A DNA stretch of 64,000 bases from Okamejei kenojei. Taxonomy: Eukaryota. Made by a program: the position numbers and the translations under genes. Below the pieces are notes generated by a model. That model had not been told where the DNA came from. It did no database searches and saw only the letters and a list, made by a program, of their open reading frames with translations. This document shows positions 1 through 64,000 of the stretch, one piece after another (positions within the stretch are counted from its first letter, which is position 1; each line of letters begins with the position of its first letter). The stretch is taken from NCBI GenBank assembly GCA_035221665.1, contig CM069147.1, positions 25,730,001-25,794,000 of the forward strand. The letters run 5' to 3'.

Positions 1-139
1 AAGGACACTGACCAGGAACTCCATCGGTCCAGTTGATTTTTGTGAGTTTACCCACCAGGAAGGGCCAATTTAACCTCTGCTACAGTCACCCGTGGGAGAG
101 GCATATTGGGGTGTGATGGGCCAGGTGTCACCATTATTC

Positions 140-3100
140 CTGTACAGTTTTTCGTCGTCCACATTTTTTGTTTTTAAAATTAGAACATTAGTTTTAATTT
201 CCCTGCTTTTTTTAGTAAAAAACTTCTTCATTTTTTTAAAATCAAGCTGCTGCATGAGACAGCGCCATCTCACAGATGTCCAATCACAATGGATCTAATT
301 ACCTATGATATGACATCACAATGGGACAGGGCTCGGAGATTGGAACCTTTAGGTGGGCCCGCTAAAATCAAACAGCTGCACGAGTCACAGAGCCATCTCA
401 CAGATGTCCCTAACGCACAATGGGACAGGTGTGGGAGATTGGAACCTTCACGTGGCTGCGTGTACAATCAAATTAGAGAGCAGGTTGTCCTATACCCCCT
501 CCCTATCTAACCCCTTTCCTCTCCCACCCACTCCCCTCTCCACCCCCAATCTCCGCTACCCCTCCCCCTCCACCACCCTTCGCCTATCCTACCCTCCCCT
601 CCTCCACCCCTCTCCCTCTCCTCCATCCCCATCTCTTCCCTCCCTCCACTTCTCCCCGTCCACTTCCTCCATTCTCATCTCCCCCTTCCCACTCCCCCAC
701 TTCTCTCTCCCTCCTCTCTCCTCCCTCCCCCTCACATCCCCTCCTCTCTCCCCGCTCCCTCCCCCGTCTCCCCTCTCCCCCCTCTACTCTCTCTCTCTCT
801 CCCTACTCTCTCTCTCCCCCTCTACCTTCCATCTACCCTCTGCTCTCTCTCCTCTCTCCCCCCTCCCTCCCCCCTCCATTCCCCCCTGCCCTATCCCCAC
901 TCCTCCCCACTTCTCTCCCACTCCCTTCTCTCTCCCCACTTCCCTTTTCCCACCGTCTCGCTCCTCACCCTTCTCTTCGCCCCATCCTCCCTCTCTCCCT
1001 CCATTTTCCCCGAACTCTCTCTCCCCCTTCTCTCGTCCCCTCTCCTCTCTCCCCTATTTCTCCACCTCCCTATTCCCACCTTCTCTCTTTCTCCTCTCTT
1101 CCCTGTCTCTCTCTCGGCCCCACTCCAGCTCCCTCTCCTCTACCTCCTTTTTTCCCCCCAGTACTCCTCTTCTCTCCCCCTATCCCTCTCGTACCCGTCC
1201 CCCATCTTTTCTGTCCCTCTCACCTCCTACCTACCCTTCCTTCTCTGGCCCCTCAATCTCACGATCCTCCCTGTCCTCCCCTCTCTCATCTTCACTCTCA
1301 ACCACCCCACCCCCCCACCTCCCTCTCCCCATTCATGCCCCCTCCCTCTACCTCCTCTCCCCAATCCCCTCCCTAAACCCCATTCCACCCTCCCCTTTCC
1401 TTTCCTCCTCACCTCCCTCCACTCCCTCCCCCTTTCCCTCCTCCTCCCCCTCTGCCCTTCACTTATCCCACCTCTCTATCCATCCTCTTCCCCCCTCTTC
1501 TCCCCCGAGTACTCTTCTTCCTTCTTCCCCTAATCCTCCTCTTATCTCCATTACTCTCCCCTCTATCCACTCTAACACCTTTCCTCATCTCAACCCCGCA
1601 ATTTTCTAAATCCTCCTTCTCCCCTCGACATCTTCACCCCATGCATCCTCTCTCCCACACCCATCTCTCCCTCCCCCCCTCTACTCTCCTCCCCTCTCTC
1701 TATCTACAATCTCTTTCTCCTCTCTCATATCCTTCACCCCTGCCATTCATCTCTCCACTCCAATCTCTTCCCTCTCACTCCCCTCACCTCTCTCCCCTCT
1801 CAATCTTCTCTCTACTCCACTCTCTCCCCCCTCCATTCTCTCCCCCTCCAATCTCCCCCCCACCTCTCCCTCTCATCACTCTCCCCCATCAATCTCTCTC
1901 CACCTCTCCCACACCCCCCTTTGTCCCTCCCCCTCTCCACTGTTCCAAAACCCCACTCACTCCACTCCTATCTTCCTCCATCTCTCTCCCCCCCACCCTG
2001 CCCTCACCGCTGCCCTCCCCTCTCTACCCACCCCACCTTTCCCCATGTCTTCACTACCACTGCGTTCTCTAATTTTAGCCCATCATCGATATCCATCCTT
2101 ATACTTCCCCTCAATACTGTTTCCTGGCGCCCCGAGGAATCATAATCCACCCCCGAGTATCTAAGTTCCCTGGGAGGGGGTTCATACCCTCCCCATCATC
2201 CCCTTCCCCCTATCTCCCCCTCCCCATCAATCTCCCACCATCCCCACTTTCCCCTCCTCCTCTCCCCTCTCCCCGAATCCCCCACCCTTCTCTAACCCCC
2301 TTCACCCACACCTTCTCCCCTCACCCCCTCCCCCTCTAATCCCACCCCTACCCCGTACTCCGCCTTATCTCCTCCACGCTCACCTCATTCCCCCCCCTCA
2401 TCCCCCTTTCTCCATTCTCCCATCATATTCGCCCCCGCACCTCCTCCTCCACCCCCCCCCCTCGCCCGTCTCCCCCCACACACTCACACCCCCCACCCCC
2501 AAACCTCTCACCGCCCCCCCCTCACCATCACCCCCCCCCCCCACCCCTTCCTCACCCACCACCCACTCTTCTCACACCCCTCACCCACCCACCCTCCCTC
2601 ACCCCACTCACCAACCCGCCCCCAATTCTCACCCCCAACACCCCCCCTCACCCCCCGCCACACCCTTCTCCACGCCCACCCCCCCCTCACCTTCTCACCC
2701 CACCCACTGTCTCCCCCCCACCACCCCCACGACCCCCCCCCCCCCCCTCTCTTCCCCCTTCACCTGACCTCACACCCGCCCCCCCCCTCGCCCTCCTCCC
2801 CACCGCTCCCTCACCCTCACCCACCCCACACCCTCACCCTCACCCGCCCCCCCGCCACCCCCCTCACCCGTTCTCACTTCCCGACCTCCACCCTTCACCC
2901 CCTAACCCACCCCCCTCTCCACCCCCCCACCCCCTCTCACACCCCCCCCCACACCCTTCTCACCCCACCCCCGCACACCCCCACCACACCCCCCCCCCCA
3001 CCCCAGCTCGAGGAGGTCCCAGAGGCTGAGATCTTCCCCCCCTCTCCCTCCCCTCTCCTCCTCCTTCGCTCCCTCCCTTCTTCCTTCCCCCGTATCACCG

Positions 3101-4539
3101 CACCCCCTCCCCTCTCGTCCTCCCCTCTCTCCTTCCTCCCCTCTCTCACTCCCCCTCACATCCCTCCTCTCTCCTCCCCCCTCTCTCCTCCCCTCACACC
3201 ATCTCTCATCACCCATCTCTCCTCACCCCTCTCCTCTCCTCACCCCTCTCTCCTCTCTCCCCATTCCCTATTTCTCCTCACCCTCTCTCCTCACCCCTCT
3301 CTCCTCAAGCCCGCTCTGCTTACCCCCTCAGCACCCCTCTCTCCTCAACCCTCTACTCATCTCTCCTTCTTCGCCCTCCTTCACCCCTCGCCCTCCTCCC
3401 TCATCCCCCTCCTCCTCCCTCCACCCTCTCTCCCACCCCCCCCTCTCCCAACCTCACCCATCTCTCCCCCTCTCCCCTTCCCCTCATCCCTCCCTCCCCT
3501 TCCCCATCCCCTCTCGACAACCCCTCCAACACTCTCGCATCCCCCCCCTACCCTCCCATCCCTACCACTTTTCCCCGTCCCCTCCGGCTCGCACCCTCCC
3601 CCTCCCCACCGGCCTGCTCTGTCCCTTCTCCATATCCTCCCCTCCCCAATCTCTCTCTCCCCCCATCTCCAACCGCCTCCTCCCCTTTCTTCTCCCTCTC
3701 TTCCTTCACAACCTCTCCCTCACAACGCTCTCCTCACCCACTCGCCCCTCTTCCCCCCCTCTGCATCCGCATCCCCCCTCTCAATCACCCCTCTCCCCAT
3801 CTCCCTCCCCTCACTCCCTCCCCCTCTCCCCATCTCCTCCTCACTCGCTCCCCCTCGCTCCCCCTCGCTCCCCCTCCTCCTTCCGTCCCCCCCTAAGTCC
3901 CCCTCTCTCCGCCCCCCCATCCCCGCTCTCTCCCTCCCCCTCCCACCCCTCTATCCCTTTCCCCTCTCCCCCTCCCTCTTCCCCTCCCCACTCTCCCCTC
4001 TATCCATCTCACCCTCATCCTCCTCCCTCCCCCCTCCCCGCTTTCCGACCCACCCATCTCCCTTCCTCCACCCTCCTTCTCCGCTCCTCCATTACCGCTC
4101 TCCCCTCCTCCACCGCACTCTCCCACCTCCAACCCCTGCTCCCCTCCTCCAACCCCCTCTCCCCCTCCAACCCCCTCTCCACTCCCTCTACCCACCACAC
4201 TCCTCTCCCTCCCCTCTCTTTCACCTCCCACTCCCCTCCTCTCCCGCTCCTCATATCTCCCCTCTCCTCTCTCCCCCTCCTTCGCTCCCCACGTCTACTC
4301 TCCCCTCTACTCCTTGGCCTCCTCCACCCTCCCGCCGCCTTCTCTCTCCGCCCCCTCGTTCCCCTCCTCTCCTCCCCCCCTCTCCCCTTTCCCTCTCCTC
4401 TCCACCCTCTCCCCTCTCGCCTCCCGTCTACCCCTACCCCCCTGTGTGTATGGCAGTTGGTTAGTGTGCGTGTGAAGGCGCCCACCCCCCCCCCCCGCGT
4501 GTTGGGGGAATAGACCCAGCGGGTCTGCACTTGGTCTAG
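140..4539 (+). mobile_element. Non-autonomous Helitron-like element carrying a ~4 kb C/T-rich tract, inserted into a Rex1 LINE
   Basis: The 3' end has hairpin AGACCC-agc-GGGTCT (4512-4526) followed 9 nt later by CTAG (4536-4539). Rex1 sequence resumes on both sides. The 5' end is not sharply defined. Confidence 0.5.
495..4440. repeat. Polypyrimidine (C/T) low-complexity tract
   Basis: Dominated by C/T with degenerate CCTCTCTC/CCCCT units; produces spurious Pro/Ser/Leu and Gly/Arg/Glu ORFs. Confidence 0.95.
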
Positions 4540-4610
4540 CAAGCACTTTGCCAGGTTCTTCCCGGTATTGCCTCTTGGCATCCTTGATGGCTTTGCGGAG
4601 GAGATGAGAG

Positions 4611-5058
4611 CAGGCATGGGTAGAAATTCTGGGGGGGGGGGTTCGGGGGGTGGGCCAACACGTCCTCCCATTGTTTTGAGAGATGGGGGACAATCCCCCC
4701 ATGTTTTGTAATTCGGATTTTTGATAATCGGTGAAAAGAAATCAATTAAAACTCCGCATTCCACGAGACAGTGGGGGTGTCATGTTAAGCGCTTGTTTAA
4801 TGTTTCTGTTAACATCGTATTAACAATGTGTCACCAATTGTGTCTTGACCTTCAAGACCTTCAACTGAAGTATACACGGAGAAGTTTTAAAGCTATCTGA
4901 TGCCCGGTACAATTACCATTTGAACTAATTGGATGTATTGGTGGATGGGAAAGATTTAAATGGGTATCGGATTTAAATGGGTCAGGTCAAAGTGGTTTCC
5001 TGGCTGGCTTGCAGGTAAGTCCCGCATTCACGGTCATTTCATGTTATTTAGTACTTTT

Positions 5059-5108
<50 letters not shown>

Positions 5109-5780
5109 ACTCTCTCCCGTCCAAGGTTGGTTCTTCTGTTTGCCTTTATTTTCTTCAGTTTTATTTATTTAAGTGTTATTTATCACGATTGTGATCCATT
5201 GTTGCTTTTGATAGATTCAAGCGGGTATCGGACGCGTTCTAAGGGGTTAAAGTGGCCCCTTCGCGGGGCCTCTCCTCGCCCGGTGTGTCGTAAAATGAGC
5301 AAAACTGCTGCATCAAGGCGATCGAGGCTCCCGATGTTGAAGCCCCCACGGCCGATTTTAAGCCGCGCCGGGCGATGAAAGGCCCCCGCCGATCGGGCTG
5401 ATTCATGCCCCCGCAAGTCAGGGCGGAAGAACCTGCTGTTGTTGGAGTTCGGAGCGCGTCACCAACCAAGGTCAGCTCCCAATGTTACCGTCACAGTGCC
5501 TTGGTTGAAGTNNNNNNNNNNNNNNNNNNNNNNNNNNNNNNNNNNNNNNNNNNNNNNNNNNNNNNNNNNNNNNNNNNNNNNNNNNNNNNNNNNNNNNNNN
5601 NNNNNNNNNNNNNNNNNNNNNNNNNNNNNNNNNNNNNNNNNNNNNNNNNNNNNNNNNNNNNNNNNNNNNNNNNNNGTCGGTTGTGTGTGTGTGTGTGTGT
5701 GGTCTGCCTGCGCGCATGCACGTGCGCGCGGCCACCAAGACATTGTGTATCCCCCACAATTGTGTTCCCTGCCGATTATT
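4611..5780. mobile_element. Putative non-autonomous DNA transposon (hAT-like MITE) with nested repeats and (CT)n/(GT)n microsatellites; mirrored at ~59045-60014
   Basis: End caggcatgggtagaaattctgggggg...gtcc resembles G-rich hAT-type TIRs; it interrupts Rex1 coding remnants. Confidence 0.4.
5512..5675. other. Assembly gap (164 N)
   Basis: N run adjacent to a (GT)n microsatellite. Confidence 1.
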
Positions 5781-8700
5781 TGATTAGCGATATTAGAGGC
5801 CATTCTTGTACTGCTCGGGTCGTTTGACGTATGCAGAGACTGGCCTGACCTGTGAAGGTACCTCGCTCACGTTAACATTCCGGAAACCCATCCATGGTTT
5901 CAGGATTGGGGAACACTCAGATTGTCTTTGACACAATATTCAGTGCATATGTGGTGAAGTCCAGTACAGTTAGTTGTGACGTGCTCATTCAGGTTAGCTT
6001 GCGGTAACCAGGATTATGGACAGTTCACTGACTCAAGGTTTTTTGTTAACAGTATTTGGCCGATAAGTGCAAAGTGTTTGTGTGATGTGTGTTAAGGCGG
6101 GGGAATGGGCGGGGAGAGGGAGAATCTTTGTCCTGAAAGAGAAAAAAATCGTTCTTAGTGAAGAGAATATGACAAGAAGCCGATGGACAATGCGATTAGA
6201 TTGACCTGTTCGTGTTGTATATTTCTATTGACTCCGGTTATCTAATATTTTTTCATTGGTAAGGCCACTTGAAGTTGGGTATTTTGCAGTGTCATAAAAT
6301 AATCTTGTGAATGTGCCTGTTGTGAACTTTTGACGGAATCATATCTCCGAACACATAATCACACTGCCTAATTGTGAACAACTGGTGCCTAAAATTCCTT
6401 AGCTTATTGGTGGATCAAACGAGGATGGTGATAAGGAGGTCGCTAATATCACGGGCAGCGAAATTCGCCATGTGCTGCGGTTGTGCGATGAGTAATCCAA
6501 TGAAATAAAAATGCTTAATTTGAAAATACAAGTTTATTCGATTGAGGGATTATGGATGTATAAAATATCGAATTCAATAAAAATTCACTAAATCGAATCT
6601 TGAATTAATTATTTGGTATGGAAAGAAAATAATTCAATGATTACATGCACAAGCTTAATAATTAAAGCAATAAATGGAATTTGGAATGCAATTCACGCAT
6701 GTGAAGGTAAACATAATTAATAGGGAATATGGGAATTGTAGATAACCAATGAGATGTCTAAGGACAATTAATACGTTAGCACGCTGCGTGGAGCCTCCTC
6801 ACTAAGAAGTAAATGTGCCTGTTATAACATTCTCAGTACATTAGAAAAGTAGGTCAGCGGCAATGAAAGTAAAGTATTATTTTTTGAATGATAGGACGAA
6901 TGCACAGAGTATTTTACCCAGAGTACGGGAATGAAAAACTAAAGGACATATGTTGAAGGTGAGAGGATAGAGATTTAATTGAAAAAAAAAACTGACGGGC
7001 ACTGCATTCACATAGCGGGTGTCTGCAACGAGCTGAATCAAATACTTATAACAGCATGTTTTGGATATTTGGGTTGGTATATATATATAGAAAACGTTGT
7101 GAGGGATATGAGTCACATTGGACGGCATGCAGTTTGGTCCAGGGCCTTTTTCCATGTTGTATGAACCAATGATGCTATGATTCTCGGACTCTATGGAATA
7201 GAATAAAATTATCGAATAATTCAGTTCGAGAGTAACTGATACATTTTCGATTCACTTCATATAGCCCGTCGAATTTACTTGTTTTTTTTCACCCCGCCTA
7301 TATACTACACTTATTTTCTTTAAGGTTGCCGTATTTTCAATTTCTTTTTGGAGCTTGACGTGTTTCAGGGTAGCGTGTGTGCAGTTCGTTATCAGCAGCA
7401 GCCTATAATTGCGATCTGTGCACAAATGTTTGTTTTGTTAATTGGACAAGGGAAAACGACAAATTTGCTCCGAGTAAGGACGTATCTGTATGCTCAGATG
7501 TGTAGAGTAAAAGCGAGGTGAAACGATCATTTACCACTTTGCATGCACAGGGCTATCAACGTGCTCTTCAGGTTTCCCTTATTCTTTGCTGCGGACAAGA
7601 TCCAAATGGGCGTGCATGGAATTGCGGCTAACTTTCTCTTCTTCTTCCTGGAAATTCATGAACTTATTTTAAAAAGTAGTTATACTACTAGATGAAGCTT
7701 TCGATCGGAATGCGCTGCAAGAATATACGAGGGACAATTATTTGTTGTTTTTGTCTCAATGACTTCTCGCACGAAGACCAATTTCCAGAGTCTAATCGAA
7801 CTGTAGGGCAAACAGTCCCAACTGGACAGATCAAAATGATAACTGCACATAACTATAGAACATAGAACGGTACAGCATAGGAACGCGTCCCTTCAGCCAA
7901 AAATGTTTGTGCTGAACCACGATGACCTCCTACACATCGATTCACTTTAGCATCTTGACATTTAACCTTACATGCGCCATCCTAAGTGCAACAGCTCAGA
8001 CTGCTCGGGTTATACTCTATCATGCTCCGTCTGCCATTTCTCCACCCACTTCTATCGATGATCTCTAACTCTCTGTATCTTCCGACAGCCCCCCTCGCTG
8101 GCTGCAACTCTACTGTTCTGTTGTTCAGCAAATTTACTCAACAATTCATCTAGATTTATGTCTACGTCATTTATATATATCACAAATAACAGTGGTCGTG
8201 TGGAATTCCACTGATCCAGACCTTCAGGCAGATCTTCTTCGACAAACTCTGTCGCTCTGAAGAAGTCAGCTCTGCTAATTAATATCACCAAGTTACAGTA
8301 GGTCCTTTTATATCTTGATCTTGATCTTTTGGATCAACTTATCACGAGGGACTTATCACAAGCTTTCCTAAGATTCGAGTTTGCAGCAGCTATCTGCCCT
8401 GCCCTCATGAAGTCTCCTTTGTCATCTGTTCAGAAAATCAATTTTAATCAGTAAAAACGTGTTAGGCCGTGCTGGCTATCGCTATTCGTCCATTCTCTTC
8501 CCAATGTCAGTAGATCCTCTCTTGAAGAAGTCTTTCCAATCGGTTCCCAACCACTAACGTGTGGTCAACCGACCTATATTTAGATCCAACTGGTTGAGAC
8601 TTGGATTCCCTCCACTTCGCTTCTTAAACAAATGGAAAAAAACACGTCCACTTCCAGTAATCCGGAATCTCGCCTGTGGCTGGACAAGAAAGCAGTAAGG

Positions 8701-9500
8701 TACAATGAAAATATTCCTTTATACCACACCTGGTGTAAACAATATATATATTTTATAATAAAATGCGAAACTCCTGTAAAATGCTTTTATATTGTTCTTT
8801 TTGTCCTCCTGTGTGTGGTGTGTACTGTGAAAACCTTCACGGATTGGGCATACGTTCAAAACAGAATAAGACGTGGTCCTTATTTTAAAACGATTTCGGT
8901 TTTCAACAAAGGCAGAATCCTGAGTTACTTTCACAAATGGAATAGTCATGTATTAAATAAGCCTTACCCAACTTTGTGTCCGATTTGTATTTACTGTACG
9001 CTTCTTTGCATCTGCTCGGAAAATATTAAAACAGTGATAAATGGCCGTGCGACATGGTGTTTTTCTAGCACGCAAAGAACGTAATATCATGTGATTAATT
9101 GCACGGTAGAGTTTCACTATATACGCTTCACTACATACACCACGTTTGTTTCTGCCCACGCTTTTTCCAAGATGTTGGACGACACAGTGGTGGAACAGGT
9201 AAATGCGGAGTTTGAGGCATTATCTTCCCTGTGACACGTGGAATTCACCGTTGCTCCAGTATACTCCCACATCCCAAGAATGTGCGGATTTGTGGGTTAA
9301 TTGACCTCTGTAAATTGCCCCCACTGTGTATTGAGAGAATACGAAAGTAGGTTAACCTAGACATAGTGTGAACGGATGATCGATGGCCGGCGTGGAATCG
9401 ATGGGTTAAAATGCCTGTTTTTCTGCTGTATCTTCCAAAAAATCAAACACATTCTTATCACAAAATTCACTGATGTTCTGATCTTGACCAATAGGTACAA

Positions 9501-9514
9501 TTAAATGCTGGCTG
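9501..9514 (-). CDS. Gene A, putative last coding exon: very short cytoplasmic tail (AASI*)
   Basis: Acceptor cacatag|CAGCCAGCATT-TAA. The right copy has the same residues ending in TGA (54722-54735), so the stop position is kept with a different codon. Confidence 0.45.
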
Positions 9515-9752
9515 CTATGTGATGATGTATCGAAATAAAACATAGAATTTTAAATATGTGATAATCAAACATTAGTCACGTGCAAAATTGAATATCTTCA
9601 TTACGTCGGTGCTATTTATTATAATCATAATTGTTGCCCGTGCAAATGTTTCATTTCCTTTATTTATCAAGCGAATCGTGTAATTACCATTTACTATTAC
9701 ATTAATATATTATACTGGGATGATGATAATGTTAAACATGGATGAGAAATTA

Positions 9753-9856
9753 CTCTAAATATAATTGTCATCGCAGACGACAACGATGAACATTAAATTA
9801 AACACTGCACCTCGGATATCTTCCAGCGATTACAGAAGCAGATAAACATTCGACAG
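9753..9856 (-). pseudogene. Gene A, exon 4: transmembrane exon, frameshifted in this copy
   Basis: Acceptor cccacag|CTGTCGAA. Homologous to the intact exon at 54383-54484 but with two single-base insertions (GGAAGATATCC, GTCGTCTGCG); reads AVECLSASVIAGRYPRCSV*. Confidence 0.75.
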
Positions 9857-10641
9857 CTGTGGGGGGGGGTTAAACCGATGGACCAAATGTTTATATTTTA
9901 ATTGAGTATTTCAAAGTAGACCTTTGCGACGAAAAAACAAAGCAAGATATTTCAAATGTTCACTCAATGGATTTTACCAGAACCGCGTGGAAGGCGGCAA
10001 AGAGCCAACAATTTCGATTTATGGCTCGATTAGGATTGAAATAAACAGCTCTTAGGTGAACCTAGTGGGATATTGACGTTAGGGAAAAAAAGAAATTGTG
10101 GAAATAATACATGAATTTGTATATATTCTGTTCACCAACTCTTGAAGGAGATGTTAATGTTACTGACGCTGGCCAGGAGTGAATCATTACAGACGTCTTC
10201 TCCCCACTAACTGTCCCCAATTAATGCAAGAGGCAACAAGATAGTTCTCATAGATAGACTGAAAATGCTAGCGTAACTCAGCGGGTCAGGCAGCATCACA
10301 GCAAAGGAGGTCAGGTGGGGGGTGATGAAAACACGACAGGGGTGAGGGCTGGAGTCAGGGGCGAGCAAAGGTGCTGAAGCAGGGTCGGGTGTGGGGGCCA
10401 GAGGGCTTCAGAGAGGAGGGGTTGGGAGGAGCTGGCAAGGGCGGGCAGGGGAGGGGTATTAAGATCATAAGGAATATGAGAATTAGGCAATTCGGCCTAT
10501 CATGTCTACTCCGCAATTCAACCATGGCTGATCTATCTCCCCCTCCTAACCCTATTCTCCTGCCTTCTCCAAATGACCTCTGATATCTATAGTAGGTGTA
10601 GAGTGGTTAGGAGCAGAAACATCTGTGTTAATTGATTATTT

Positions 10642-10805
10642 TTACATTATTCCTCGGGAAGGTGTGATGTTTGTGGAGGCATCAGAGTGGACTTGTAGAT
10701 CACGTGAAAGGGAATGGGCTACAGGTTCGCGATCGATTGCGGGAACGGTATTGATGAAATTCTTCTGGGAGGCAACATAGACTGGATGGACTTTACAGCG
10801 TCCGT
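10642..10805 (-). CDS. Gene A, possible alternative terminal (secretory-type) exon DGRCKVHPVYVASQKNF...TPSRGIM*
   Basis: Long polypyrimidine tract and tag| acceptor ~165 nt below the C1 donor. A phase-1 join gives an open ~54-residue hydrophilic tail, also open in the right copy (51328-51491). No canonical AATAAA was seen just after it. Confidence 0.35.
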
Positions 10806-10971
10806 CTACGCCGGGAGGAAAAGGATAGAGAAAATAGGAAAATTGCACAAGTTCTCGGAAAATAAATTTGCTGCACAAAATACGGTCTTTTAAAAATCTT
10901 CACATTTTATTTTTACTATTAATATTATTATTCAATGGACTGTCCATTATACTATCCGTAGGAAACGTTAC

Positions 10972-11277
10972 CTTCATGAGGAACCGTGTAGTTGGCAGTT
11001 GCTGGAGTTAGCATAGAACGGTGAATAATTTTACACGTGTAAACGGTTCCTTCTTTGACTGCCCGTTTCTCCTCTAAAGAGCTGATAACTTCATACAATC
11101 CGTCTGCCGTTGAATGTTGTTCATGCCGAAATCCAGATTGGATGATGGAACCATTTCTGTGCCAGGTGAGATTAAATTCTTTCGGGTAAAAGGCAGCCGT
11201 TCTGCACTGGATTTTCAGGAAATGAGTCGCAGCATTTCTAGATCGAACAGATACAATCTTCAGAGGAGAAGGGACAG
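10972..11277 (-). CDS. IgSF receptor gene A, exon 3: C1-set Ig constant domain (absent from the ORF track)
   Basis: Acceptor ctctctacttag|, donor G|gtaacg, 306 nt open, phase 1/1. Translation (A)VPSPLKIVSVRSRNAATHFLKIQCRTAAFYPKEFNLTWHRNGSIIQSGFRHEQHSTADGLYEVISSLEEKRAVKEGTVYTCKIIHRSMLTPATANYTVPHE has C-x4-FYP, W-x-x-NG, DGLY and YTC-x3-H. Confidence 0.93.
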
Positions 11278-12154
11278 CTAAGTAGAGAGGAATATAATTA
11301 AAAGAAAGGGGAAAAGTCGATTACATCATCCAATAGCATTTGTTCCAACGCTACTTAATTCCATCATAATTTTTAAATCGGGAGCCCAGATGAAGGTGTA
11401 ATTCATCGCAATTGACCCCCCCCCCCATTCCCTTGACATGCATTCCCTTGACATTTAATTTAAGAAAAGAGCACTAATTTGCACACTTGTTTCTTGTGCT
11501 ACCATGCGCGAATCAACTTTCAAGTTTCAACTCTCCAAAGGCACAATACTGTTGTGAATATTTCAACTTCCCAACATAATCAGTCATAAACAGTTGCAGA
11601 CTTTGACTGGCTTACAGAGAATGCTTTGAATAAAATTTCTTGTTTCTCTATTTCGGCGCAAGAAATATAAATTATATTTCAATTATTTTGTGGAAGTAAA
11701 AACCTCGCTCTTTCAATTCACAGGATTATATGTTGATAACATTATCATTAGGAAAACATCAGGAAGATCCCCACCTCGGCGTCATTGTCAAATTGAAACC
11801 GTTGTATTTATTCATATGACACTCACTACCTTCAATATACATCAGCTCAAATATCATTGCTGTCATTCCCTCTGGCCTATATTTTCGAACGAATCAATCT
11901 AGAATAATTGTCCAACGTTTTGCACATTTGTATTCTGGATTAAAGACTTTTGTGAAGCAAAATCCAAATTCGAGCTGCAACTGAATACCTAAGAAGGAAA
12001 CTGCAGACTCGCTGAAATCGAAAGTGCTGGAGAACTCAGCGGGTGCAGCAGCATAATTCGGGCCGAAACGTTGCCTAATTTCCTTCGTTCCTGCACCCGT
12101 GACCGCTGGTTTCTCCAGCATTGTTGTCTAGCAACTAAAGAACCGTTCGCTCAC

Positions 12155-52250: not shown

Positions 52251-54382
52251 CGGAAGTCCTCCGCAAACTCCAGCGGAAGCATCCAGCATAGTGGGACGAA
52301 GTAATCGAGAAGGAGTTCGGGGGTAACGCCGCAGCGAATGTTGTTGAACAAGCACATGCACCATGTAACCAACACATGGTTAGCCAGTAAGCTGATGTGA
52401 GTGTCCATGATGCTGCAACTTTAACTTGGAGAAAGTGAGTGGAGTCAAATTGAATTGTTGATGGGGTGACGAAAAATTCTCTAGACACAGGAGATTGTTC
52501 GTTTATGAGAAAAATATATTTGGTCTATTTTCAAGGAAGAAACGGAGGCCATGAGATGTTTCTGCTCCTAACCACTCTACACCTACTATAGATATCAGAG
52601 GTCATTGGGAGGAAGGAAGGAGAATAGGGTTGGAGGAGAGATAGATCCAGGCATGGTTGATTTGCGGAAGTAGACATGATGGGCCGAATTGCCTAATTAC
52701 TCTATTCCTTTAAGATATTAATACCCCTCCCCTGGCCCGCCCTTGCACAGCTCCTCATCCCCTCCTCTTGAAGCCCTCTGCCCCCTACCCGACCCTGCTT
52801 CAGCACCTTTGCTCGCCTGACTCAGCCTCACCCCTGTCGTGTTTTCACCACCCCCTGGACCTTCCTTTGCGATACAGAACGGCCAGTCTTCGAATCAATT
52901 GAGCTACATCCTACACCCGTGCAACCTCAACTTACTCACTAATGTCTACTTGCCTAAAAGGACCTGGACTATCTCGATACCGCTCTATCCTTCCTTTCTC
53001 TTCTCCATTCGCTCCACCAGCCACCGCCAATCCTAAACATCATCGTCGACATTTCGTCGCCCGCCACTGATTCCCATTAATAATCACTATATTTACATTC
53101 ATGTGCGCTTTCGCCTTTTGCAGGGATGTTCCTCCACAACTATGGTTAATTAATCCCTTTAAAACGCAGACCACCCCAAACCGAAGGTAAATTCTTTTAC
53201 AACTGCGAGGATGGATGTAAACACTCGCTCTGTACCTCCCTCCTCTCCTCTATGACGGACTACCGACTGGTCTTCTCCAGGTTGACAGTAGTTCATATGA
53301 TCTTCCTCTTAATGTTATCTACTGTCTCCGTTGGTCTGGTATGGCCGGGGTCCATGTATAATAGTTAATTTTTTTCTATTTTTTTTTTTTTTTTTTTTAC
53401 TGTGAAAAAGGTGTGGATTTAATCGGCATTTAGCCTGCATGCTCTGGACTATTGGATTCTCCCAGTTGCTAAGTATTTAATTCCCTTTCTCATTCTACAC
53501 TGACCTTTCTGTCGAGGACCTGCCTTGGGCACAGTGGCGGAAAGCAAAATTCGTGCGAACAACCACCTCATATTTCATTGTATGGCATACAGCCCAGGCG
53601 GCTAAAGAAAGTTGAATTCTCCAAATTTTAGTAATGTCCACAAACATTACCTCCATATCCTTGCCCCGCCCGCCCCCTCCACATTTGCCACCTTCCTCCT
53701 CTAAATGTCGATTAACCAGTCCACAATTTGCAAACGATGTAGCCCCTCTTGGCATAACGTCGTCTCCCCCTAACCAAACATTCGCCTAATCTGGGAACCT
53801 CCTGGTGTTGGGGGTCAAGGATATGTAGCTGGTGCTTCGGTGTCCTCCCCCCCCCCCCCCACCCCCCCCCCACCCCCCCCCCCACAATCAGTCTGAACAA
53901 GTGTCCCGACACAAAACGTCACCTCTCCATTTTCTCCAATGATGCTGCCTGACCCGCTGAGTTACGCCAGCATTTTCAGTCTATCTATGAGAGTTATCTT
54001 GTTGGCTCTTGCATTAATTGGGGACAGTTAGTGGGGAGAAGACGTCTGTAACGATTCACTCCTGGCCAGCGTCAGTAACATTAACATCTCCTTCAAGAGT
54101 TGGTGAACAGAATATATCCAAATTAATGTATTATGTTCCACAATTTTCTGTTTCCTAACGGTCAATATCCCACTAGGTTCACTTAAGATCTGTTTATTTC
54201 AATCCTAATCGAGCCATAAATCGAAATTGTTGGCTCTTTGCCGCCTTCCACGCGGTTCTGGGGAAATCCATTGAGTGAACATTTGAAATATCTTGCTTTG
54301 TTTTCCGCAAAGTCTACTTTGAAATACTGAATTAAATATAAACATTTGGTCATCGGTTTAACCCCCCACCCCCCCTCCAAAG

Positions 54383-54484
54383 CTGTCGATGGTTTATCTG
54401 CTTCTCTAATCGCTGGAAGTATCCGAGGTGCAGTGTTAATTTTAATGTTCATCGTTGTCGTCGCGATGACAATTATATTTAGAG
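54383..54484 (+). CDS. Gene A' intact transmembrane exon with intramembrane Arg (AVDGLSASLIAGSIRGAVLILMFIVVVAMTIIFR)
   Basis: Acceptor ctccaaag|, donor AG|gtatgt, 102 nt, phase 1/1; hydrophobic stretch containing R. Confidence 0.85.
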
Positions 54485-55539
54485 GTATGTTTCTCATCCA
54501 TGTTTTAACATTATCATCCCAGTATAATATTATAATGTAATAGTATTGGTAATTACACGATTCTCTTGATAATAAAGGAAATGAAACATTTGCACGGACA
54601 AAAATTATGATTATAATAAACAGCACCGACTTAACGATAGATATTCAATTTTGCATGTGACTAATGTTTGATGATCACATATTTTGAATTATATGTTTTA
54701 TTTCGACACATCGTCACATAGCAGCCAGCATTTGATTGTACCTATTGGTCAAGATCTGAACATCTGTGAATTTTCCGATAAAAATGTTTTTCATTGGTTG
54801 AAAGATACAGTAGAGAAATAGGCCTTTTAACCCATCGATTCTATGCCGGCCATCGATCATCCGTTCACACCAGGTCTACGTTAACCTACTTTCGCATCCA
54901 CTCAATACACAGTGGGGGCAATTTACAGAGGTCAATTAACCCACTAATCCGCACATTCTTGGGATATGGGAGTATACTGGAGCAACGGGTAAAATCCACG
55001 TGGTCACAGGGAGAATATGCCTCAAACTCCGCATTTACCTGTTCCACCACTGTGTCGTCCAACATCTTGGAAAAAACGTGGCAGAAACAACGTGGTGTAT
55101 GTAGTGAAGCGTATATAGTGAAACTCTACCGTGCAATTATCACATGATATTACGTTCTTTGCGTGCTAGAAAACACCATGTCGCACGGCCATTTATCACT
55201 ATTTTATATTTCCGAGCAGGTGCAAAGAAGCGTACAGGAAATACTAAATCGGACACAAAGTTTGGTAAGGCTTATTTAATACATGACTATTCCATTTGTG
55301 AAAGTAGAGACAGGATTCTGCCTTTATTGAAACCAAATCGTTTTAATAAGGACCACGTCTTATTCTGTTTGAACGTATGCCCAATCCGTGAAGTTCACAG
55401 TCCACTACACAAAGGAGGACAAAAAGAACAATATACAATGCATTTACAGAAGTTCGCATTTATTATAAATATATATATTGTTTACACCAGGTGTGGTAAA
55501 AGGAATATTTTCATTGTACCTTACTGCTTCTTGTCCAGC

Positions 55540-56980
55540 CACAGGCGAGATTCCGGATTACTGGAGAGTGGCTGTGTTTTTCCTTTGTTTAAGAAGGGAA
55601 GTGGAGGGAATCCAAGTCTCAATCAGTTGGATCTAAATATAGGTCGGTTGACCACACGTTAGTGGTTGGGAACCGATTGGAAAGACTTCTTCAAGAGAGG
55701 ATCTACTGACATTGGGAAGCGAATGGACGAATAGCGATAGCCAGCACGGCCGAACACGTTTTACTGATGTAATTGAGTTTTCTGAACAGATGACAAAGGA
55801 GATTCGTGAGGGCAGGGCAGTAGCTGCTGCAAACACGAATCTTAGGAAAGCTTGTGATAAAGTCCCTCGTGATAGGATGATCCAAAAGATCAAGATCAAG
55901 ATATACAGGACCTACTGTAACTTGGTGATATTAATTCAGAACTGACTTCTTCAGAGCGACAGAGGTTTGTCGAAGGAAGATCTGCCTGAAGGTCTGCGAT
56001 CAGTGGAATTCCACACGGACCACTGTTATTTGTGTTTTATATAAATGACGTAGACATAAATCTAGATGAATTGTTGAGTAAATTTGCTGAACAACAGAAC
56101 AGTAGGAGTTGCAGACAGCGAGGGGGGCTGTCCGAAAATACAGAGAGTTATAGATCATCGATAGAAGTGGGTGAAGAAATGGCAGACGGAGCATGATAGA
56201 GTATAACCCGAGCAGTCTGAGCTGTTGCACTTTAGGATGGCGCATGTAAGGATAATGTCAAGATGCTAAAGTGAATCGATGTGCAGGGAGGTCATGGAGT
56301 CCAAGTTCATAGCTCACTGAAGGCAGCATGAAGAGGTAGGCTAGTAAAGATGGCGAATGATATGTTTGCCTTCATTGCTAGGGGATTGAATATGTCATGA
56401 AATCATGAAACAGCTCTAAAAGACTATAGTTATGCCCCATTAGTTTTCCGTGCGGTTCTGGTAGCCTCATTACAGAAAGCCTATGGGGAGGGTGCAGAAG
56501 AGGTTTACCAGATGCGCTTGGATTAGCGAGGTGCAAGTGAACGAAGGGGTTGTATAAACTTGGATAGTTTTCACTGGAAATTCGGAGCATGAGGGCAGAA
56601 TTAGTAGAGTAAAATGTATAGATAGGGTAGACCGTCAGAACCTTTTCCACATAATATAAATGTCCAATGCTAGAGGGCATAGCTATAAGGTGTGTGGGAG
56701 AAAGTTTGGTAGATGTATACCGGGGAAGTTCTTTACATAGCGATTGTTGTTTGCCTAGAAGGCATTACCAGGTGTGATGGTGGAGGCAGACACGACAGTG
56801 GCGTTTAAAAGGCATTTAGATGGACACTTGCTTGTGCAAGGAAAAAGGGGATATGGATCATGTACAGATAGATGAGATTATGTACAGATAGATGAGATCT
56901 GTTTAACATGGCATCGTGTTCAGCACAAACATTTTGGGCCGAAGGGCGCGTTCCTATGCTGTACCGGTCTATGTTCTATG
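55540..56980 (+). mobile_element. Old CR1; the mirror copy at ~7850-8680 lacks ~620 bp
   Basis: KACDKVP motif, tctatgttctatg tail; deletion junction gtcat/gcat in the left arm at ~7922. Confidence 0.75.
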
Positions 56981-58739
56981 TTATGTGCAGTTATCATTTT
57001 GATCTGTCCAGTTGGGACTGTTTGCCCCACAGTCGATTAGACTCTGGAAATTGGTCTTCGTGCGAGAAGTCTTTCGAGACAAAACAACAAATAATTGCCC
57101 CTCGTATATTCTTGCCAGCGCATTCCGATCGAAAGCTTCATCTGTAGTATAACTAATCTTAAAATAAGTTCATGAATTTCCAGGAAGATGATGAGAAAGT
57201 TAGCTGCAATTCGATGCACGCCCATTTGGATCTTGTCCGCAGCAAAGAATAAGGGAAACCTTAAGAGCACGTTGAGAGCCCTGTGCATGCAAAGGTAAAG
57301 ATCGTTTCAAGCTTTTACTCTACACATCTGAGCATACAGATACGTCTTACTCGGAGAAATTTGTCGTTTTCTTGTCCAATTAACAATAACAAACATTTGT
57401 GCACAGATCGCAATTATGGCTGCTGCTGATAACGAACTGGCACACGCTTCCTTGAACACGTCTAGCTCCAAAAAGAAATTGAAACGGCAACATAAAGAAA
57501 TAAGTGTAATATATAGCGAGGTGAAAAAAAACAACTAAATTCGACGGGCTCTCTGGAAGTGAATCGAAAATATATCATTTACTCTCGAAATGAATTATTC
57601 GCTAATTTTATTCTATTCATAGAGTTCGAGAATCATAGCTTCAATGCGTCATACAACATGGGAAAAGGCCCTTGGGCCAAACTGCATGCCGTCCAATCTG
57701 CCCCAGTAGTCACACCTAACCGCGTTTGACCCATATCACTCTCAACGTTTCCTATATATATACCAACCCAAATATTCTATACATGCTGTTATAGTATCTG
57801 ACTCAGCTCGTTGTAGACACCCGCTATGTGAATGCAGTGCCCGTCAGTATTTTTTTCAATTAAATCTCTATCCTCTCACCTTCAACATATGTCCTGTAGT
57901 TTTTCATTCCCATACTCTGGGTAAAATACTCTGTGCATTCGTCCTATCTATTCACAAAATGTAATACTTCACTTTCATTACCGCGGACCTACTTTTCTAC
58001 TGTACTGTGAAGTTATAATAGGCACGTTTACTTCTTAGTTGAGGGGGCTCACGCAGCGTGGCTAACGTATAATTGTTTTTAATCTCATTGTTATTACAAT
58101 TCCATTATTTCCTATTAATTATGTTTACCTTCACATGCGTGAATTGGCATTCCAAATTCCATTTATTGCTTTATTATGAAGCTTGGTGCATGTATCAATT
58201 GATTATTTTCTTTCATACCAAATAATTAATTCAAGATTCCGATTTAGTGAATTTTAGTGAATTCGATATTTTATACATCCATAATCCCTCAATCAAATAA
58301 CTTGTGATTTTCAAATGTTAAGCATTTTTATTTCATTGGATTACTCTCGGCAAACTGCAGCACATGCAAATTTCGCGCTGTGATATTAGAGACACCCTTA
58401 TCACCTCCTCGTTTGATCCACCAATAAGCTAAGGAATTTTAGGCACCAGGTTGTCACAATTATGCAGTGTGATTTGTTTCGGAGATATGATTCCAGGTCA
58501 AAAGTTCACAAGAGGCATATTCACAACAAGATTATTTATGACACTGCAAAAAAACCCAACCTCAATGGCCTTACCATTGAAAAAATATTAGATAACCGGG
58601 AGTCATAGAAATACACAACACGAACAGGTCAATCTAATCGGCATTGTCCATCGGCTTCTTTGTCATATTCCTTCACTAAGACGATTTTTTTCCCAGTTTC
58701 AGGACAAAGATTCTCCCCGCCCATTCCCCGCCTTAACAC

Positions 58740-59120
58740 ACAATCACACAAACACTTTGCACTTCGCGGCCAAATAGTGTTGACAAACCTTGAGTCAGTG
58801 GACTGGTCCATATTCATGGAAACCGCAGCTAACCTGAATGAGTACGTCACAACTGTGACTGACTTCATCAGCAAATGCACAGAATATTGTGTGCAGCCAA
58901 AGACAATCTGAGTGTTCCCCAACCCAAAACCATGGATGTTTCCGGAATGTTAACGCGAGGTACATTCACAGGTCAAGGCCAGGTCTCCTGCATACAAGTC
59001 AAACGACCCCGAGCAATTCAAGAAGGCCTGCTAATATCGCTATCAAATCATCGGAGGGACACAATTTGGGGGACACACAATGTCTTGGTGGCCGCGCGCA
59101 GGTGCATGCGCGCGCGCGCT

Positions 59121-59151
<31 letters not shown>

Positions 59152-60067
59152 GAAGCTTTGTAAGCTTCAGCCATGGGCACTGTGGACGGTAACATCGGGA
59201 GCTGACCTGGTTGGTGACCGACTCCGAACTCCAACAACAGCGGGTTCGTCCGCCCTGAATTGCGGGGCATGAATAGGCCCGATCGCGGGGCCTTTCATCG
59301 CCCTGCGCGGCTTAAAATCGGCCGGCGGGGGCTTCAACATCGGGAGCCTCGATCGCCTTGATGCAGCAGTTTGATTTTACGCCACACCGGGCGAGGAAAC
59401 GCCCTGCGAAGGGGCCAATTTAGCCCTGAGAACACGTCTGATACCCACTTGAATCTATCAAAAGCAACAATGGTCCACAATGTGATAAATGACACTTAAA
59501 CAAATAAAACTGAAACAAATAAAGGCAAACGGAAGAACCAATCTTGGAAGGGAGAGAGAGAGAGAGAGAGAGAGAGATAATGGGGAAAAAGTACTAAATA
59601 ACATGAGTGACCGTGAATGAGGGACTTACCTGCAAGCCAGCCAGGAAACCCGTTCGACCTAACCCATTTAAATCCGAAACCCATTTAAATCTTTCACATC
59701 CACCAATACATCCAATTTGTTCAAGTGGTAATTGTACCGGCATCAGATAGCATTAGATAGAAATTCTCCGTGAATACCTTCAGTAATACTTGAAGGTCAA
59801 AGCACAATTGGTGACACATCGTTAATACGATTTTAACAGAAACATTTAACAAGCGCTTAACAGTGACACCCCCACTGTCTCGTGGAAAGCGGATTTTGTA
59901 ATTGATTTTTCTCACCGAATATCAAAATCCGAATTACAAAACATGGGGGGGGATTGTCCCTCACCTCTCAAAACATGGGAGGGGCGTGTGTCCCAGAATT
60001 TCTACACATGCCTGCTATCATCTCCGCAAAACCATCAAGGAGATACCGGGACGAACCTGGCAAAGTG
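58740..60067 (+). mobile_element. Upstream fragments of the same Rex1 element (58740-59040, 60016-60067), mirrored at ~5790-6060 and 4540-4610
   Basis: LESVDWSIFMETAANLNEYVTTVTDFISKC...KTI; the left copy reads LRKAIKDAKRQYRE. Confidence 0.75.
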
Positions 60068-63000
60068 CTAGACCATTAGGACTGGGCCTATTCCCCCAAC
60101 ACGCGGGGGGGGGGGGGTGCGCCTTCACACGCACAGTAACCACCTGCCATACACACAGGGAGGTAGGGGTAGACGGGAGGCTAGTGGGGGAGAGTGAGAG
60201 GAGAGGGAAAGGGGAGAGTGGGAGGAGGGGGGGGGGGGAAGAGGGAGAGAGAGAGAGCGGGGAGGGGAGGAGGAGGCAAGAGCAGAGGGGGAGAAGTGGG
60301 GAAAGAGGTGGGGAGAGAGGAGGGGGAAAGAGGTGGGGAGAGAGGAGGGGGAGAGAGGAGAGAGGGAGAGATGAGGGGAGGTAGAGAGGGGGGAGTGGGG
60401 GAAAGTGAGGTGGGTAGAGGGGAGGGGAGAGGGGGTTGGAGGAGGGGAGAGGGGTTGGAGGAGGGGAGAGGGGGTTGAAGGAGGGGAGAGCGGCGGTTGG
60501 AGGAGGGGAGGGGGGCTGGAGGAGGAGACGAGAAGGAGGGTGGAGGAGGGGAGATGGGTGGGTCGGAAAGCGGGGAGGGAGGGAGGAGGAGAGGGTGATA
60601 TGGAGAGTGGGGGAGAGTGGGGAGGGGAAGGGGAGGGGAAGGGGAGGGGGGGAGGGGAGGGGAGAAGGGGAGGGGGAAGGGGGGAAGGGATAGAGGGGTG
60701 GGGGGGGGAGGGGAACGAGGCAGGGGGGCGGAGAGAGGGGGAGGGAGGAGGAGGGGGGAGGGAGGAGGAGGGGGGAGGGAGGAGGGGGGAGGAGGAGGGG
60801 GGAGAGAGGGGGGAGCGAGGGAGGAGGAGATGGGGAGAGGGGGAGGGAGGAGGGGAGGAGATGGGGAGAGGGGAGAGGAGAGGGGGGTGGAGGGGGGGAA
60901 AAGAGGGGGCGGGAGGGGTGAGGACGAGAGTTGTGAGGAGAGAGGTGTGAGGAGAGAGGGGGAGAAGAAAGGGAGAGGAAGACGGGTGGAGATGGGGGAG
61001 ATATTGGGGAAGGGAGGAGATATGGAAGGGAGAGACGGGGGGGGAGGGGTGAGCGCGGAGGGGGGAAGGGGGGGGAGGGGTAGGGAGTGGGGGGGAGGGG
61101 ATGCGAGAGTGGTGGGGAGGGTGTTAGAGAGGGGGGGGGAAGGCGGAGGGAGGGAGAGGGGAGGAAGGAGAAATGGGTGGGGTGGGAGAGGGGGGATGGG
61201 GAGAGGGGTGGAGGGGGAGGAGGGGAGGGAGGAGGACGGCGAGGGAGTGAAGGAGGGAGAGAGGGAGGAGATGGGGAGAGGGGCGAGGAGAGAGGGGTGA
61301 GGGAAGGGTGATGAGGGAGTGGTAAGCAGAGAGGGGTGAGGAGAGAGGGGGTGGTGGAGAATAGGGAATGGGGGAGAGAGGAGAGAGGAGAGAGGGATGA
61401 GGAGAGGGGTGAGGAGAGATGGGTGAGGAGAGATGGGTGAGGGGAGGAGAGATGGGGAGGAGAGGGGGGGGGAAGAGAGGGGGAGGAGAGAGGGGGTAGG
61501 AGAGGGGTTAGGAGGGGGGAGAGGAGGGAGGGGAGAGGGGAGGGGGAGAGTGGGGAGGGTGGAGAGTGGGGAGGGAAGTAGAGGGAAGAGGGAGGGGGTG
61601 GGAAAAGGGGGATTAGGATGCGGGGAGGGTGAAATGGGGTGACAGGGGAGGGGAGTGGTAGAGGGGGAGGGGAGAGAGGGTGGGTGAGGGGGCTTAGAGA
61701 AGGGTGGGGGAGGGGGAGGGAGGGGAGAGGAGAAGGGGAAGAGGGGGAGAGGGGTGGGGAGGGGAGTGGGGGGGGAGACAAGGGGAGGGGAGAGCGGAGG
61801 GAGGGGAGAGGAGAGGGGGAGAGGGGAGGGGATGAGGGGGAGGTGAGGGAGGGAAAGGATGGGGAGGGGAAAGGAAGGGATGGGAGGGTGGGGAGGGGGA
61901 GGGTGGGGAGGGGGGAGAGGTGGGGGCGGGAAGGTGGAGGAGGGAGATTGGAGGGGGAGAGAGCGTGGAGTGGAGGGCGGAAAGTGGAGGGGGAGAGGAA
62001 TAAGGGGGGAGAGAGGTGGGGGAGAGAGAGAAGGGAGTGGGGGAGGTGGAGAGAGGTGGAAGGGCGTGGGGAGAGTGATGAGAGGGAGAGAGTGGAGGGG
62101 GGAGAGAAAGGGTGGGAGAGAGTGGAGGAGGAGAGAGTGGAGGAGGAGAGAGTGGGGAGAGAGGGTGTGAGAGAGGTGAGTGAGGAGAGAGAGAACGTGG
62201 GAGAGTTAGAAGGGGAGAGTGAGAAGGGGTGGAGAAAAGGCATGGGGTTGGGAAAGGAATGGAGGGGGGGACTGTTTAGAGGGGAGAAAGAGTATTAGCG
62301 GGAAAGAGAGAGTAGAGGGGAGAGAGAGATTAGACGGGGGGGGGGAGAGAGAGTACAAGGAAGAGAGAGGGGGGGAGGGGGAGAGAGAGGAGGGGGTGAG
62401 TGAGGGGTAGGGGGGGACGAGGGTAGCTGAGAGTTGGAGGGGGAGAGAAAAGGAGGGGGAGGTGGTAAGGGGAGAGGTTGGGGGAGAGGAGGGGTAGAGG
62501 TGACGGGGGCGGAAGGGAGGGTGGAGTGGGGGGAGGACAGGGGAGGGTGGAGAGGGGGAGAGAATAAGAGGTGGAGGGTGGAGGTGGAGGGAGTGGAGGG
62601 GATAGAGGGGATGGGGCATAGTGGGGGAGAGGGGGTGAGAGGAGAGAGGTGGTGAGGGTGGGGAGAGAGGGAGGGGAGAGGGAGGAGGTGGAGAGATTGA
62701 GGGGGCAAAGAGGAGAAGGAGGGAGTGGGGGTGAAGAGAGAAGAGGGGACGAGAGAGGAGGGAGATGGGAGAGTAGGGGGAAAGAGAGGAGGGGGAGAGA
62801 GAGGAGGGGCGAGAGAATGGCGGGTGAGACGGTGGGAAAAGGGGTGTGGGGAGAGAGAAGAGAGAGAGAAGGGGAAAGTGGGGAAGGCAGGGGGTGGAAG
62901 GGAGGGAGGGAGGGGGAGAGAGAGAGCAGAGGGTAGATAGAGAGTAGAGGGGGAGAGAGAGAGTAGAGGGGAGAGAGAGAGTAAAGAGGGGAGAGAGGGG

Positions 63001-63500
63001 AGAGGGGGAGGGAGCGGGGAGAGAGGAGGGGGTGTGAGGGGGAGGGAGGAGACAGGAGGAGAGAGAAGTGGGGGAGAGTTGGAATGGGAGAGAAGTGGAA
63101 GGGAGAAGTGAAGGGGGGAAGAGATGGGGATGGAGGGGAGGGGAGGGTGGAGAGGGAGGGTAGGATAGGAAGGTTGGAGGGGAAGTGGGGGGGTGGAGTG
63201 GGGTGGAGAGGGAGGGGGTGGAGGAAGGGGTAGAGAGAGAGGGGATAGGACAACCTGCTCTATTTGATCTTGATTGTACACGCCAGACCGCCTAAAGGTT
63301 CCAATCTCCCAATGGGAGCCCTGTCCCATTGTGAAGTCATATCATGTCAGTGAGACCCATTGTGATTGGACATCTGTGAGATAGCGCTGTGACTCATGCA
63401 GCAGCTTGATTTTAAAAAAATGAAGTTTTTTACTAAAAAAAGCAGGGAAATTAATAACCAAATGTTCTAATTTTAAAAACAAAATGTGGAGGACGAAAAA
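60068..63500 (-). mobile_element. Mirror copy of the Helitron-like element
   Basis: CTAG at 60068-60071, same flanks, G/A-rich body. Confidence 0.5.
60160..63250. repeat. Polypurine (G/A) low-complexity tract, mirror of 495-4440
   Basis: G/A-rich, with dense G-runs. Confidence 0.95.
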
Positions 63501-63504
63501 CTGT

Positions 63505-64000
63505 ACAGGAATATGGTGACACCTGGCCCATCAAACCCCAATATGCCTCTCCCGGGTGACTGTAGCAGAGGTTGGCCTTCCTGGTGGTAAACTCACAAAA
63601 ATCAACTGGACCAGATGGAGTTCCTGGCAGTGTCCTTAGTAGCTGCGCGGACCAGCTAGCGGAGTATCCTACTCCGTTCTGAAGTAATCACCTGCATCCA
63701 AAAGACCACCTTCATCCCATTGCCAAAGAAAAGCAAGACCTTATGCCGAAACGAAAACCATCCAGTGGCCTTCACGTCCGCCATCATGAAATGTTTTGAG
63801 AGGCTAGATATGGAACGCATTAAATCCAGTCTACCCCGTGACTTTGACCCACTGCAGTTCGCCTGCTGCCACAACAGCTCCATGGATGATGCCATCACCC
63901 TAACCCTACACACATTCCGAGAAGAGAGGAGAGACACCTACATCAGATTCCTAGATTCAGATTCATAGATTACAGCTCTGCCTTTAATACCATCCCAGTT
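63505..64000 (+). mobile_element. Rex1/Babar LINE reverse-transcriptase remnant (mirror at 1-135, minus strand)
   Basis: HPVAFTSAIMKCFERL...DPLQFAC...SMDDAI, plus gccttta atacc (AFNT-like) and an upstream GPDGVPG-like segment. Confidence 0.8.

Follow-up and report, generated by a model that had tools for sequence, protein, structure and literature searches.

Inverted copies of a VJ-C1 receptor gene on either side of an assembly gap in Okamejei kenojei: old paralogues or a product of assembly?

Are two outward-facing copies of a receptor gene in the Okamejei kenojei assembly two genes, or two versions of one? The question is raised by a stretch of 64,000 nucleotides (GenBank assembly GCA_035221665.1, contig CM069147.1, positions 25,730,001 to 25,794,000 of the forward strand), hereafter the window, in which the copies, both called gene A here, lie in the two arms of a large inverted repeat whose spacer contains a 500-N assembly gap. 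We tentatively favour, at a confidence a little short of even, an old inverted paralogue in a birth-and-death receptor cluster. The original prediction had asked whether the join was a scaffolding decision and the arms two haplotypes, and this proves to be the central issue, with roughly even chances that the arrangement as drawn is a product of assembly.

A self-comparison of the window gives one collinear inverted chain, running from 1↔63637 through to 19346↔42498. With low-complexity tracts excluded, 11,744 bp align when the arms are compared as inverted copies, as opposed to 297 bp in the direct sense and 1,582 bp between arm and spacer, the last being transposon matches; all ten shuffled controls returned 0 aligned bp. 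Together these controls rule out chance or repeat-driven similarity. As assembled, the left arm (1..19346) measures 19.3 kb and the right arm (42498..63637) 21.1 kb. The giant inverted duplication of about 19-21 kb described in the original prediction thus stands in outline, but its arms are not simple reverse complements of each other: aligned blocks, each 73-92% identical, cover 11,379 of the 19,346 left-arm bases (1,446 of 5,143 in the inner left arm), and the longest perfect match between the arms is 160 bp. A further 4.1 kb of the left arm is a low-complexity C/T-rich tract (357..4439), mirrored in the right arm by 3.1 kb of G/A-rich sequence (60191..63287). These irregular polypyrimidine/polypurine tracts of 3-4 kb lie on the 3' side of both gene A copies and may cause read dropout and poor local quality.

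Sequence private to one arm occurs at 11 of the 13 chain junctions, in amounts of 72-2,972 bp. Eight junctions are mainly right-only (72-2,271 bp, 6,446 bp in sum) and three are left-only (109-2,972 bp, 3,462 bp in sum); the remaining two are a low-complexity tract and a 164-N gap (5512..5675) that lies beside a CA microsatellite inside the left arm, opposite which the right arm has no more than 24 bp. The largest left-only segment (15014..17985, about 3.0 kb) includes a long interspersed nuclear element (LINE) reverse-transcriptase fragment at 15250-15735, and the largest right-only segment (about 2.3 kb) spans 43959..46229. Several of the private segments resemble retroelement pieces or microhomology deletions. 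One right-only segment, at 51933-52379 on the minus strand, carries a YIGETKRRL-type frame that Pfam left without a match and that we take to be the GIY-YIG endonuclease of Penelope-like elements.

No true duplication boundary is visible in the window, and neither the arm length nor the spacer length is measured. The left arm is still inside the homology at base 1, so its outer end lies beyond the window, and the homology of the right arm begins 7 bases past the 500-N gap (41991..42490), just as had been predicted. No sequence crosses that gap, and its round length is a placeholder that fixes neither the true size nor the order and orientation of what it separates. Because the inner end of the right arm is a contig end, the predicted spacer of about 23 kb and promoter distance of about 36 kb hold only as descriptions of the assembly (23,144 bp, of which 500 are N, and start codons about 36.3 kb apart); the outward orientation of the two copies is as drawn, but both distances include the placeholder.

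How much of the difference between the arms is real? Raw long-read error accounts for much of the arm-to-arm mismatch. Between about 42.5 and 51.1 kb, the sequence of the right arm resembles an unpolished long read: the 3,045 columns of aligned block E contain 195 extra-base and 81 missing-base events, mostly of 1 bp, its isolated mismatches are 11 transitions vs 36 transversions, and there is a sharp switch to near identity at about 51085. The excess of extra bases changes sides along the alignment, from the left arm in blocks B-D (136 vs 75, p=3e-5) to the right arm in blocks E-F (242 vs 115, p=2e-11). The left arm is error-rich at about 4.8-10.3 kb and cleaner at about 10.6-19 kb, and the right arm is cleaner at 51.1-60 kb. 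We presume that this insertion-biased indel profile is the signature of PacBio continuous long reads. As a gauge of noise we used several copies of one LINE 3' region (15249-16120, 18111-18505, 23416-23827, 36037-37277 and beyond), presumably CR1-like; the copy starting at 36 kb may extend for about 3 kb.

Only two tracts are nearly free of indels, each with a single one, and they differ in divergence (Fisher p=5e-7). The first (9250..9640) has 37 mismatches in 392 columns (9.4%), 20 of them transitions; the second (10624..11066) has 7 in 441 (1.6%). Because even these clean tracts differ, the arms are two different molecules and not one locus read twice, lying about 2-3% apart on a crude estimate. 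A crude noise correction, which presumes a true divergence of 0-2% in block E, gives 2-3% for blocks B and C, about 1% for D, 5-7% for the inner block F and about 0 for the short outer block. The cleaner blocks show an excess of transitions (p=0.014). Divergence is lowest over the leader, V and C1 exons of gene A and higher beside its transmembrane (TM) exon and upstream, a patchiness compatible with past local conversion and equally with recombination between old alleles.

These differences bear directly on a homotype artefact, in which under-collapsed noisy reads or a fold-back chimeric read would have placed the same molecule in the assembly twice. The raw-read error signature over 42.5-51.1 kb is what such an artefact would bring, and artefacts of this kind are described in the available part of PMC9516828. 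Read errors cannot, however, make arm-private segments of 0.3-3 kb in both directions, nor a near-indel-free tract with 20 transitions, and a fold-back would not leave a 22.6-kb unique middle; we therefore regard this explanation as highly improbable.

The opposite extreme, a perfect or near-perfect palindrome, is also rejected, given the block identities, the short exact matches, a clean-tract divergence of 1.6-9.4% and the 11 large indels. Sex-chromosome palindromes, as far as the available text of PMC3723533 and bioRxiv 10.1101/800185 describes them, resemble the window in having inverted, gene-bearing arms of more than 10 kb around a spacer, and the window as assembled has arms of that size; their arms, however, are more than 99% or 99.9% identical, a level that the arms of the window do not reach, and the spacer of the window contains an unsized gap. 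The palindrome-like reading, with arm-to-arm conversion and spacer inversion, is accordingly weak, with one large indel per 1.5-2 kb.

The noise also determines how the genes themselves are to be read. In each arm gene A begins with a split leader. Its V exon also contains a J-like GxG motif and is followed by a C1-set exon, then by a TM exon and lastly by a cytoplasmic segment. In the left copy, on the minus strand, the leader (12759..12813) is open with a GT donor, the V exon with its GxG (12155..12466; 312 bp, phase 1-1) is open and 66% identical to the Pristis protein P0001, and the C1-set exon (10972..11277; 306 bp) is open. Its TM exon (9754..9856, approximate ends) is frameshifted by 1-bp extra bases, and its cytoplasmic segment (7285..7647, approximate ends) holds decayed units resembling the immunoreceptor tyrosine-based inhibitory motif (ITIM), the last of them frameshifted. 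In the right copy, on the plus strand, the leader (49157..49211) lies in a noisy stretch, with three small indels and a start codon read as CTG; the V exon (49514..49851) has 26 small indel events (20 extra, 6 missing); and the C1 exon (50867..51174) has 15, all before about 51085, its 3' part being nearly identical to the left copy. The right TM exon (54383..54484) is open and encodes the Arg that P0001-P0003 have at the equivalent position, and the cytoplasmic segment (57184..57538) carries tandem ITIM-like units. The acceptor of the TM exon is AAG.

As assembled, neither copy is intact, and the two are damaged in complementary places: the left copy has an open leader, V and C1 but a frameshifted TM exon and last tail unit, and these last two are open on the right. 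Since this pattern tracks the noise map, most of the frameshifts are read errors and not pseudogene lesions. We did not accept that the right copy has decayed into a pseudogene, since most of its indels are of 1 bp, with a bias to insertions, an excess of transversions and a sharp end at about 51085, and the left copy is damaged in the same way elsewhere; a true lesion may nevertheless hide among them.

Both copies share an in-frame TAA early in the run of ITIM-like units (7579-7581 on the left, 57250-57252 on the right), with one intact VIYSEV downstream of the stop in the right copy. The ITIM-like units have His in place of Tyr, and their position behind a shared stop, together with the TM Arg, has the look of an inhibitory receptor turning activating. 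By analogy with paired-receptor families such as NKp30, SIRP-beta and Siglec-16, protein A is most likely an activating or non-inhibitory receptor that would use its TM Arg to pair with an adaptor, the shared stop having removed the ITIM-like tail; we infer that it derives from an inhibitory receptor. A search for an exon linking the TM exon (phase 1) to the cytoplasmic exon (phase 0) gave five weak candidates at one place, none of which was accepted, and so the exact tail is uncertain.

The spacer holds a third and divergent member of the receptor family, overlooked in the original prediction. This gene B lies on the plus strand, head-to-head with the left gene A, and consists of a frameshifted V exon (26775..27092, with a possible leader near 26501-26557) and a frameshifted C1 exon (39510..39802). 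The call rests on tblastn matches (best E 1e-9) and on the conserved C, W and YYC, since Pfam is weak on the fragments (V-set E 0.077, with the C1 piece unmatched). Its V-C1 intron would be 12.4 kb vs 0.9 kb in gene A, so that the exons may come from two separate genes. The 39.8-42.0 kb stretch before the gap yielded neither a TM nor a tail exon for gene B, though noise could hide one there, and no continuation was found past the gap; consequently, either the gap hides sequence or the join is wrong.

The second of these possibilities can be put as real paralogues wrongly joined: the copies would be tandem, or farther apart, or separated by unassembled genes such as the rest of B or a second B, and the inverted, head-to-head arrangement would come from scaffolding. 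The unspanned gap allows this, and the missing gene B exons imply that the gap hides at least some kilobases. In Hemiscyllium ocellatum one gene model (P0154) continues from an A-type unit through a TM into a B-type unit; annotation has probably merged two tandem genes here, and the model implies A and then B on the same strand in that species, unlike the head-to-head A and B of the window. On the other side, the gap is flanked on each side by 21 kb of sequence or more, probably much more, which should usually permit orientation, and A and B are inverted neighbours inside the left contig itself, which makes inversions native to the cluster. We judge a wrong join of real paralogues distinctly unlikely.

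For the old inverted paralogue that we favour, the course of events would be as follows. A lineage-specific inverted segmental duplication of gene A, of at least 19-21 kb and with its true ends out of view, would have been followed by drift of the copies through substitutions (about 2-3%), retroelement insertions and kilobase-scale deletions on both sides, possibly with local gene conversion around the ectodomain exons; the long-read assembly in which the locus lies is poorly polished and would have broken within the receptor cluster. Of this, the inverted homology, the anatomy of the genes, the real differences between the arms, the pattern of noise and the family membership are observed; that there are two loci, that join and orientation are right and that conversion took place is our reading. 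The real differences in the clean tracts and the 11 large indels in both directions argue for this course. So does the lower divergence over the leader, V and C1 exons than beside the TM exon and upstream, a pattern known from converting receptor pairs (PMC5701461). Batoid heterozygosity is usually below about 1%. Because substitutions at a few percent are accompanied by a large indel every 1.5-2 kb over 20 kb of introns and flanks, the arms are hard to read as recombining alleles, at least at the rates we assume.

Duplication is also plausible because the receptor family duplicates readily. Same-species pairs at 72-96% identity are common in it: 87% for P0004/P0005 of Heterodontus, 72% for P0155/P0156 of Heptranchias, 85% in Mobula birostris and 74-96% among B-type members of M. 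hypostoma. P0162/P0167, which have identical V domains, are named as isoforms and were not counted as a converted pair. A-type genes number at least three in Heterodontus and at least two in Heptranchias, counts that, like those for all species here, are lower bounds from a word-limited search.

Several observations weigh against two paralogous loci. The right arm starts at the gap, and both flanks of the gap are of low quality, with the errors of block E on the right side and indel-rich transposon copies and the gene B exons on the left. A gap between copies and an excess of errors are hallmarks of false duplication in the available parts of PMC9516828 and bioRxiv 2020.05.22.110833. The gap truncates gene B, which does not resume beyond it. 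Three of five batoid species yielded one A-type gene each and the other two yielded none, and clean and noisy blocks show no significant contrast in CpG transitions (p=0.15).

The same points lend weight to a false heterotype duplication, in which there would be only one A locus, whose two divergent haplotypes went into different contigs that both end near gene B and were then joined end to end, inverted, across the 500-N placeholder. We hold this to be nearly as likely as the old paralogue. The homology reaches the contig start, the two contigs stop on one and the same flank of the locus with gene B truncated, and sequence close to raw-read quality makes up more than half of the left contig and 8.6 kb of the right one, the copies being clean in complementary places. 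Where a batoid species yielded A genes at all, it yielded one, and very old allelic lineages are reported for the major histocompatibility complex class II of sharks in the available portion of PMC8010645. Known false heterotype duplications, as these are presented in the available text of bioRxiv 2020.05.22.110833 and PMC9516828, resemble the window in having error-rich copies on one scaffold, a gap between them and an apparent gain of genes; the window likewise has a gap between copies on one scaffold and excess errors in the duplicated parts. In divergence and in structural difference, however, the window exceeds the modest excess of heterozygosity, only about 1.5-1.8-fold, that the available part of PMC9516828 gives for false duplications. 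About 2-3% substitution, a 9.4% tract and 11 large indels over 20 kb of noncoding sequence would need an old, recombination-suppressed haplotype, and real recent duplicates are common in the family.

To what family, then, does gene A belong? Judged by its sequence, it is a member of a clustered chondrichthyan family of non-rearranging VJ-C1-TM receptors, with V and the J-like GxG in one exon, then a C1-set exon, then a TM, and it groups accordingly in trees. Of 756 candidates compared with the gene A V exon, 3 proteins matched; all of them come from rays or sawfish, and the best stands at 66%. A profile search returned 29 matches among 7,755, all named from cartilaginous fish, under such mixed automatic names as SIRP-alpha-like, B7-H6-like, tapasin-related, CD276 and PD-L1, and a full-library search returned 72 clusters with E of at most 1e-30, among which are some long multi-Ig proteins that are unrelated. 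Trees were built from 25 of the 29 profile matches, leaving out one isoform and three partial proteins, and 23 passed the C1 length filter; gene A joins three batoid A-type proteins with support of 100/99 for V and 96/98 for C1, a position that puts the window in a batoid. Family members of one species share one scaffold length, and from these lengths and two neighbouring LOC numbers we infer that they cluster on the same scaffold. Across sharks, rays and a chimaera the clustered family includes ITIM-tailed forms and short-tailed forms with a TM Arg, and carries at least five automatic names.

Among known receptors, one point of comparison is SIRP. Both have a V domain with a J-like motif followed by a C1-set domain, and both families have ITIM-bearing and charged-TM members; NCBI automatically names P0001 and P0002 as SIRP, and the closest non-antibody V-C1 matches of P0001 in the PDB are 2wng (E 3e-15) and 4i2x (E 4e-14), with E-values near those of antibody chains. 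The SIRP ectodomain is V-C1-C1, in contrast to the single C1 exon of each gene A copy and the single C1 of P0001, and the likeness is one of sequence and domain order. NKp30 (NCR3) has a TM Arg in common with gene A but is a single VJ domain without a C1, which gene A has. With UrIg, gene A shares a single-exon VJ, a split leader and a C1-set domain (PMC12227049 and PMC10751288, in the parts available), and P0001 matches the UrIg2 structure only through its C domain (E 2e-10). UrIg and UrIg2 have three or more C1 domains, and UrIg2 has many, nine in the nurse shark (PMC12227049, in the part available), whereas gene A has one and then a TM. Protein A would work like a paired V-C1 receptor of the SIRP kind without the second C1, and is neither UrIg/UrIg2 nor NKp30.

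VJ-C1 genes in tetrapods and UrIg in sharks are on record in the available part of PMC10751288. We did not find the VJ-C1 receptor cluster described in the literature covered, a weak negative, as key subscription papers lie outside that coverage and the supplements of PMC10751288 and PMC12227049 could list the genes. With single-exon VJ and C1 receptors in both ITIM-bearing and Arg-TM forms, the family is relevant to how antigen receptors arose, and it merits closer attention than the inversion does.

The closest parallel for the gene A pair itself is SIGLEC11/SIGLEC16, which, according to the available text of PMC5701461, are also head-to-head duplicates of patchy similarity, highest over the ligand-binding exons. 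They differ in lying about 9 kb apart, in comprising one inhibitory and one activating member, the latter without tyrosine motifs, and in showing conversion across species. Both gene A copies, by contrast, look to be of the same type, given the shared stop and His changes, and their intergenic distance includes an unsized gap. The most far-reaching reading is that the inverted duplicate is genuine and head-to-head, perhaps covering A and B together with its centre in the gap, that conversion kept the ectodomain exons alike as TM and flanks diverged, and that A is switching from inhibitory to activating by gain of the TM Arg, loss of the ITIM tyrosines and truncation of the tail at a stop. We estimate this to be unlikely; if true, the oldest jawed lineage would have a counterpart of the Siglec-11/16 system made of antigen-receptor-like domains. 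As a duplication the locus is ordinary either way. If real, it would add one more inverted duplicate to an immune-receptor cluster, a common pattern, and would be of use mainly in tracing the expansion of the VJ-C1 family; if false, it would inflate the gene count by a spurious copy and leave gene B split by a misjoin.

Of the remaining features, Rfam matched 0 families in the window. A small inverted repeat of about 160 bp (22537-22693) is 77% identical between its halves, and related short repeat ends flank it at 21360-21453 and 23060-23255. Directly past the last matched base of the right arm, positions 63638-64000 hold LINE reverse-transcriptase-like sequence.

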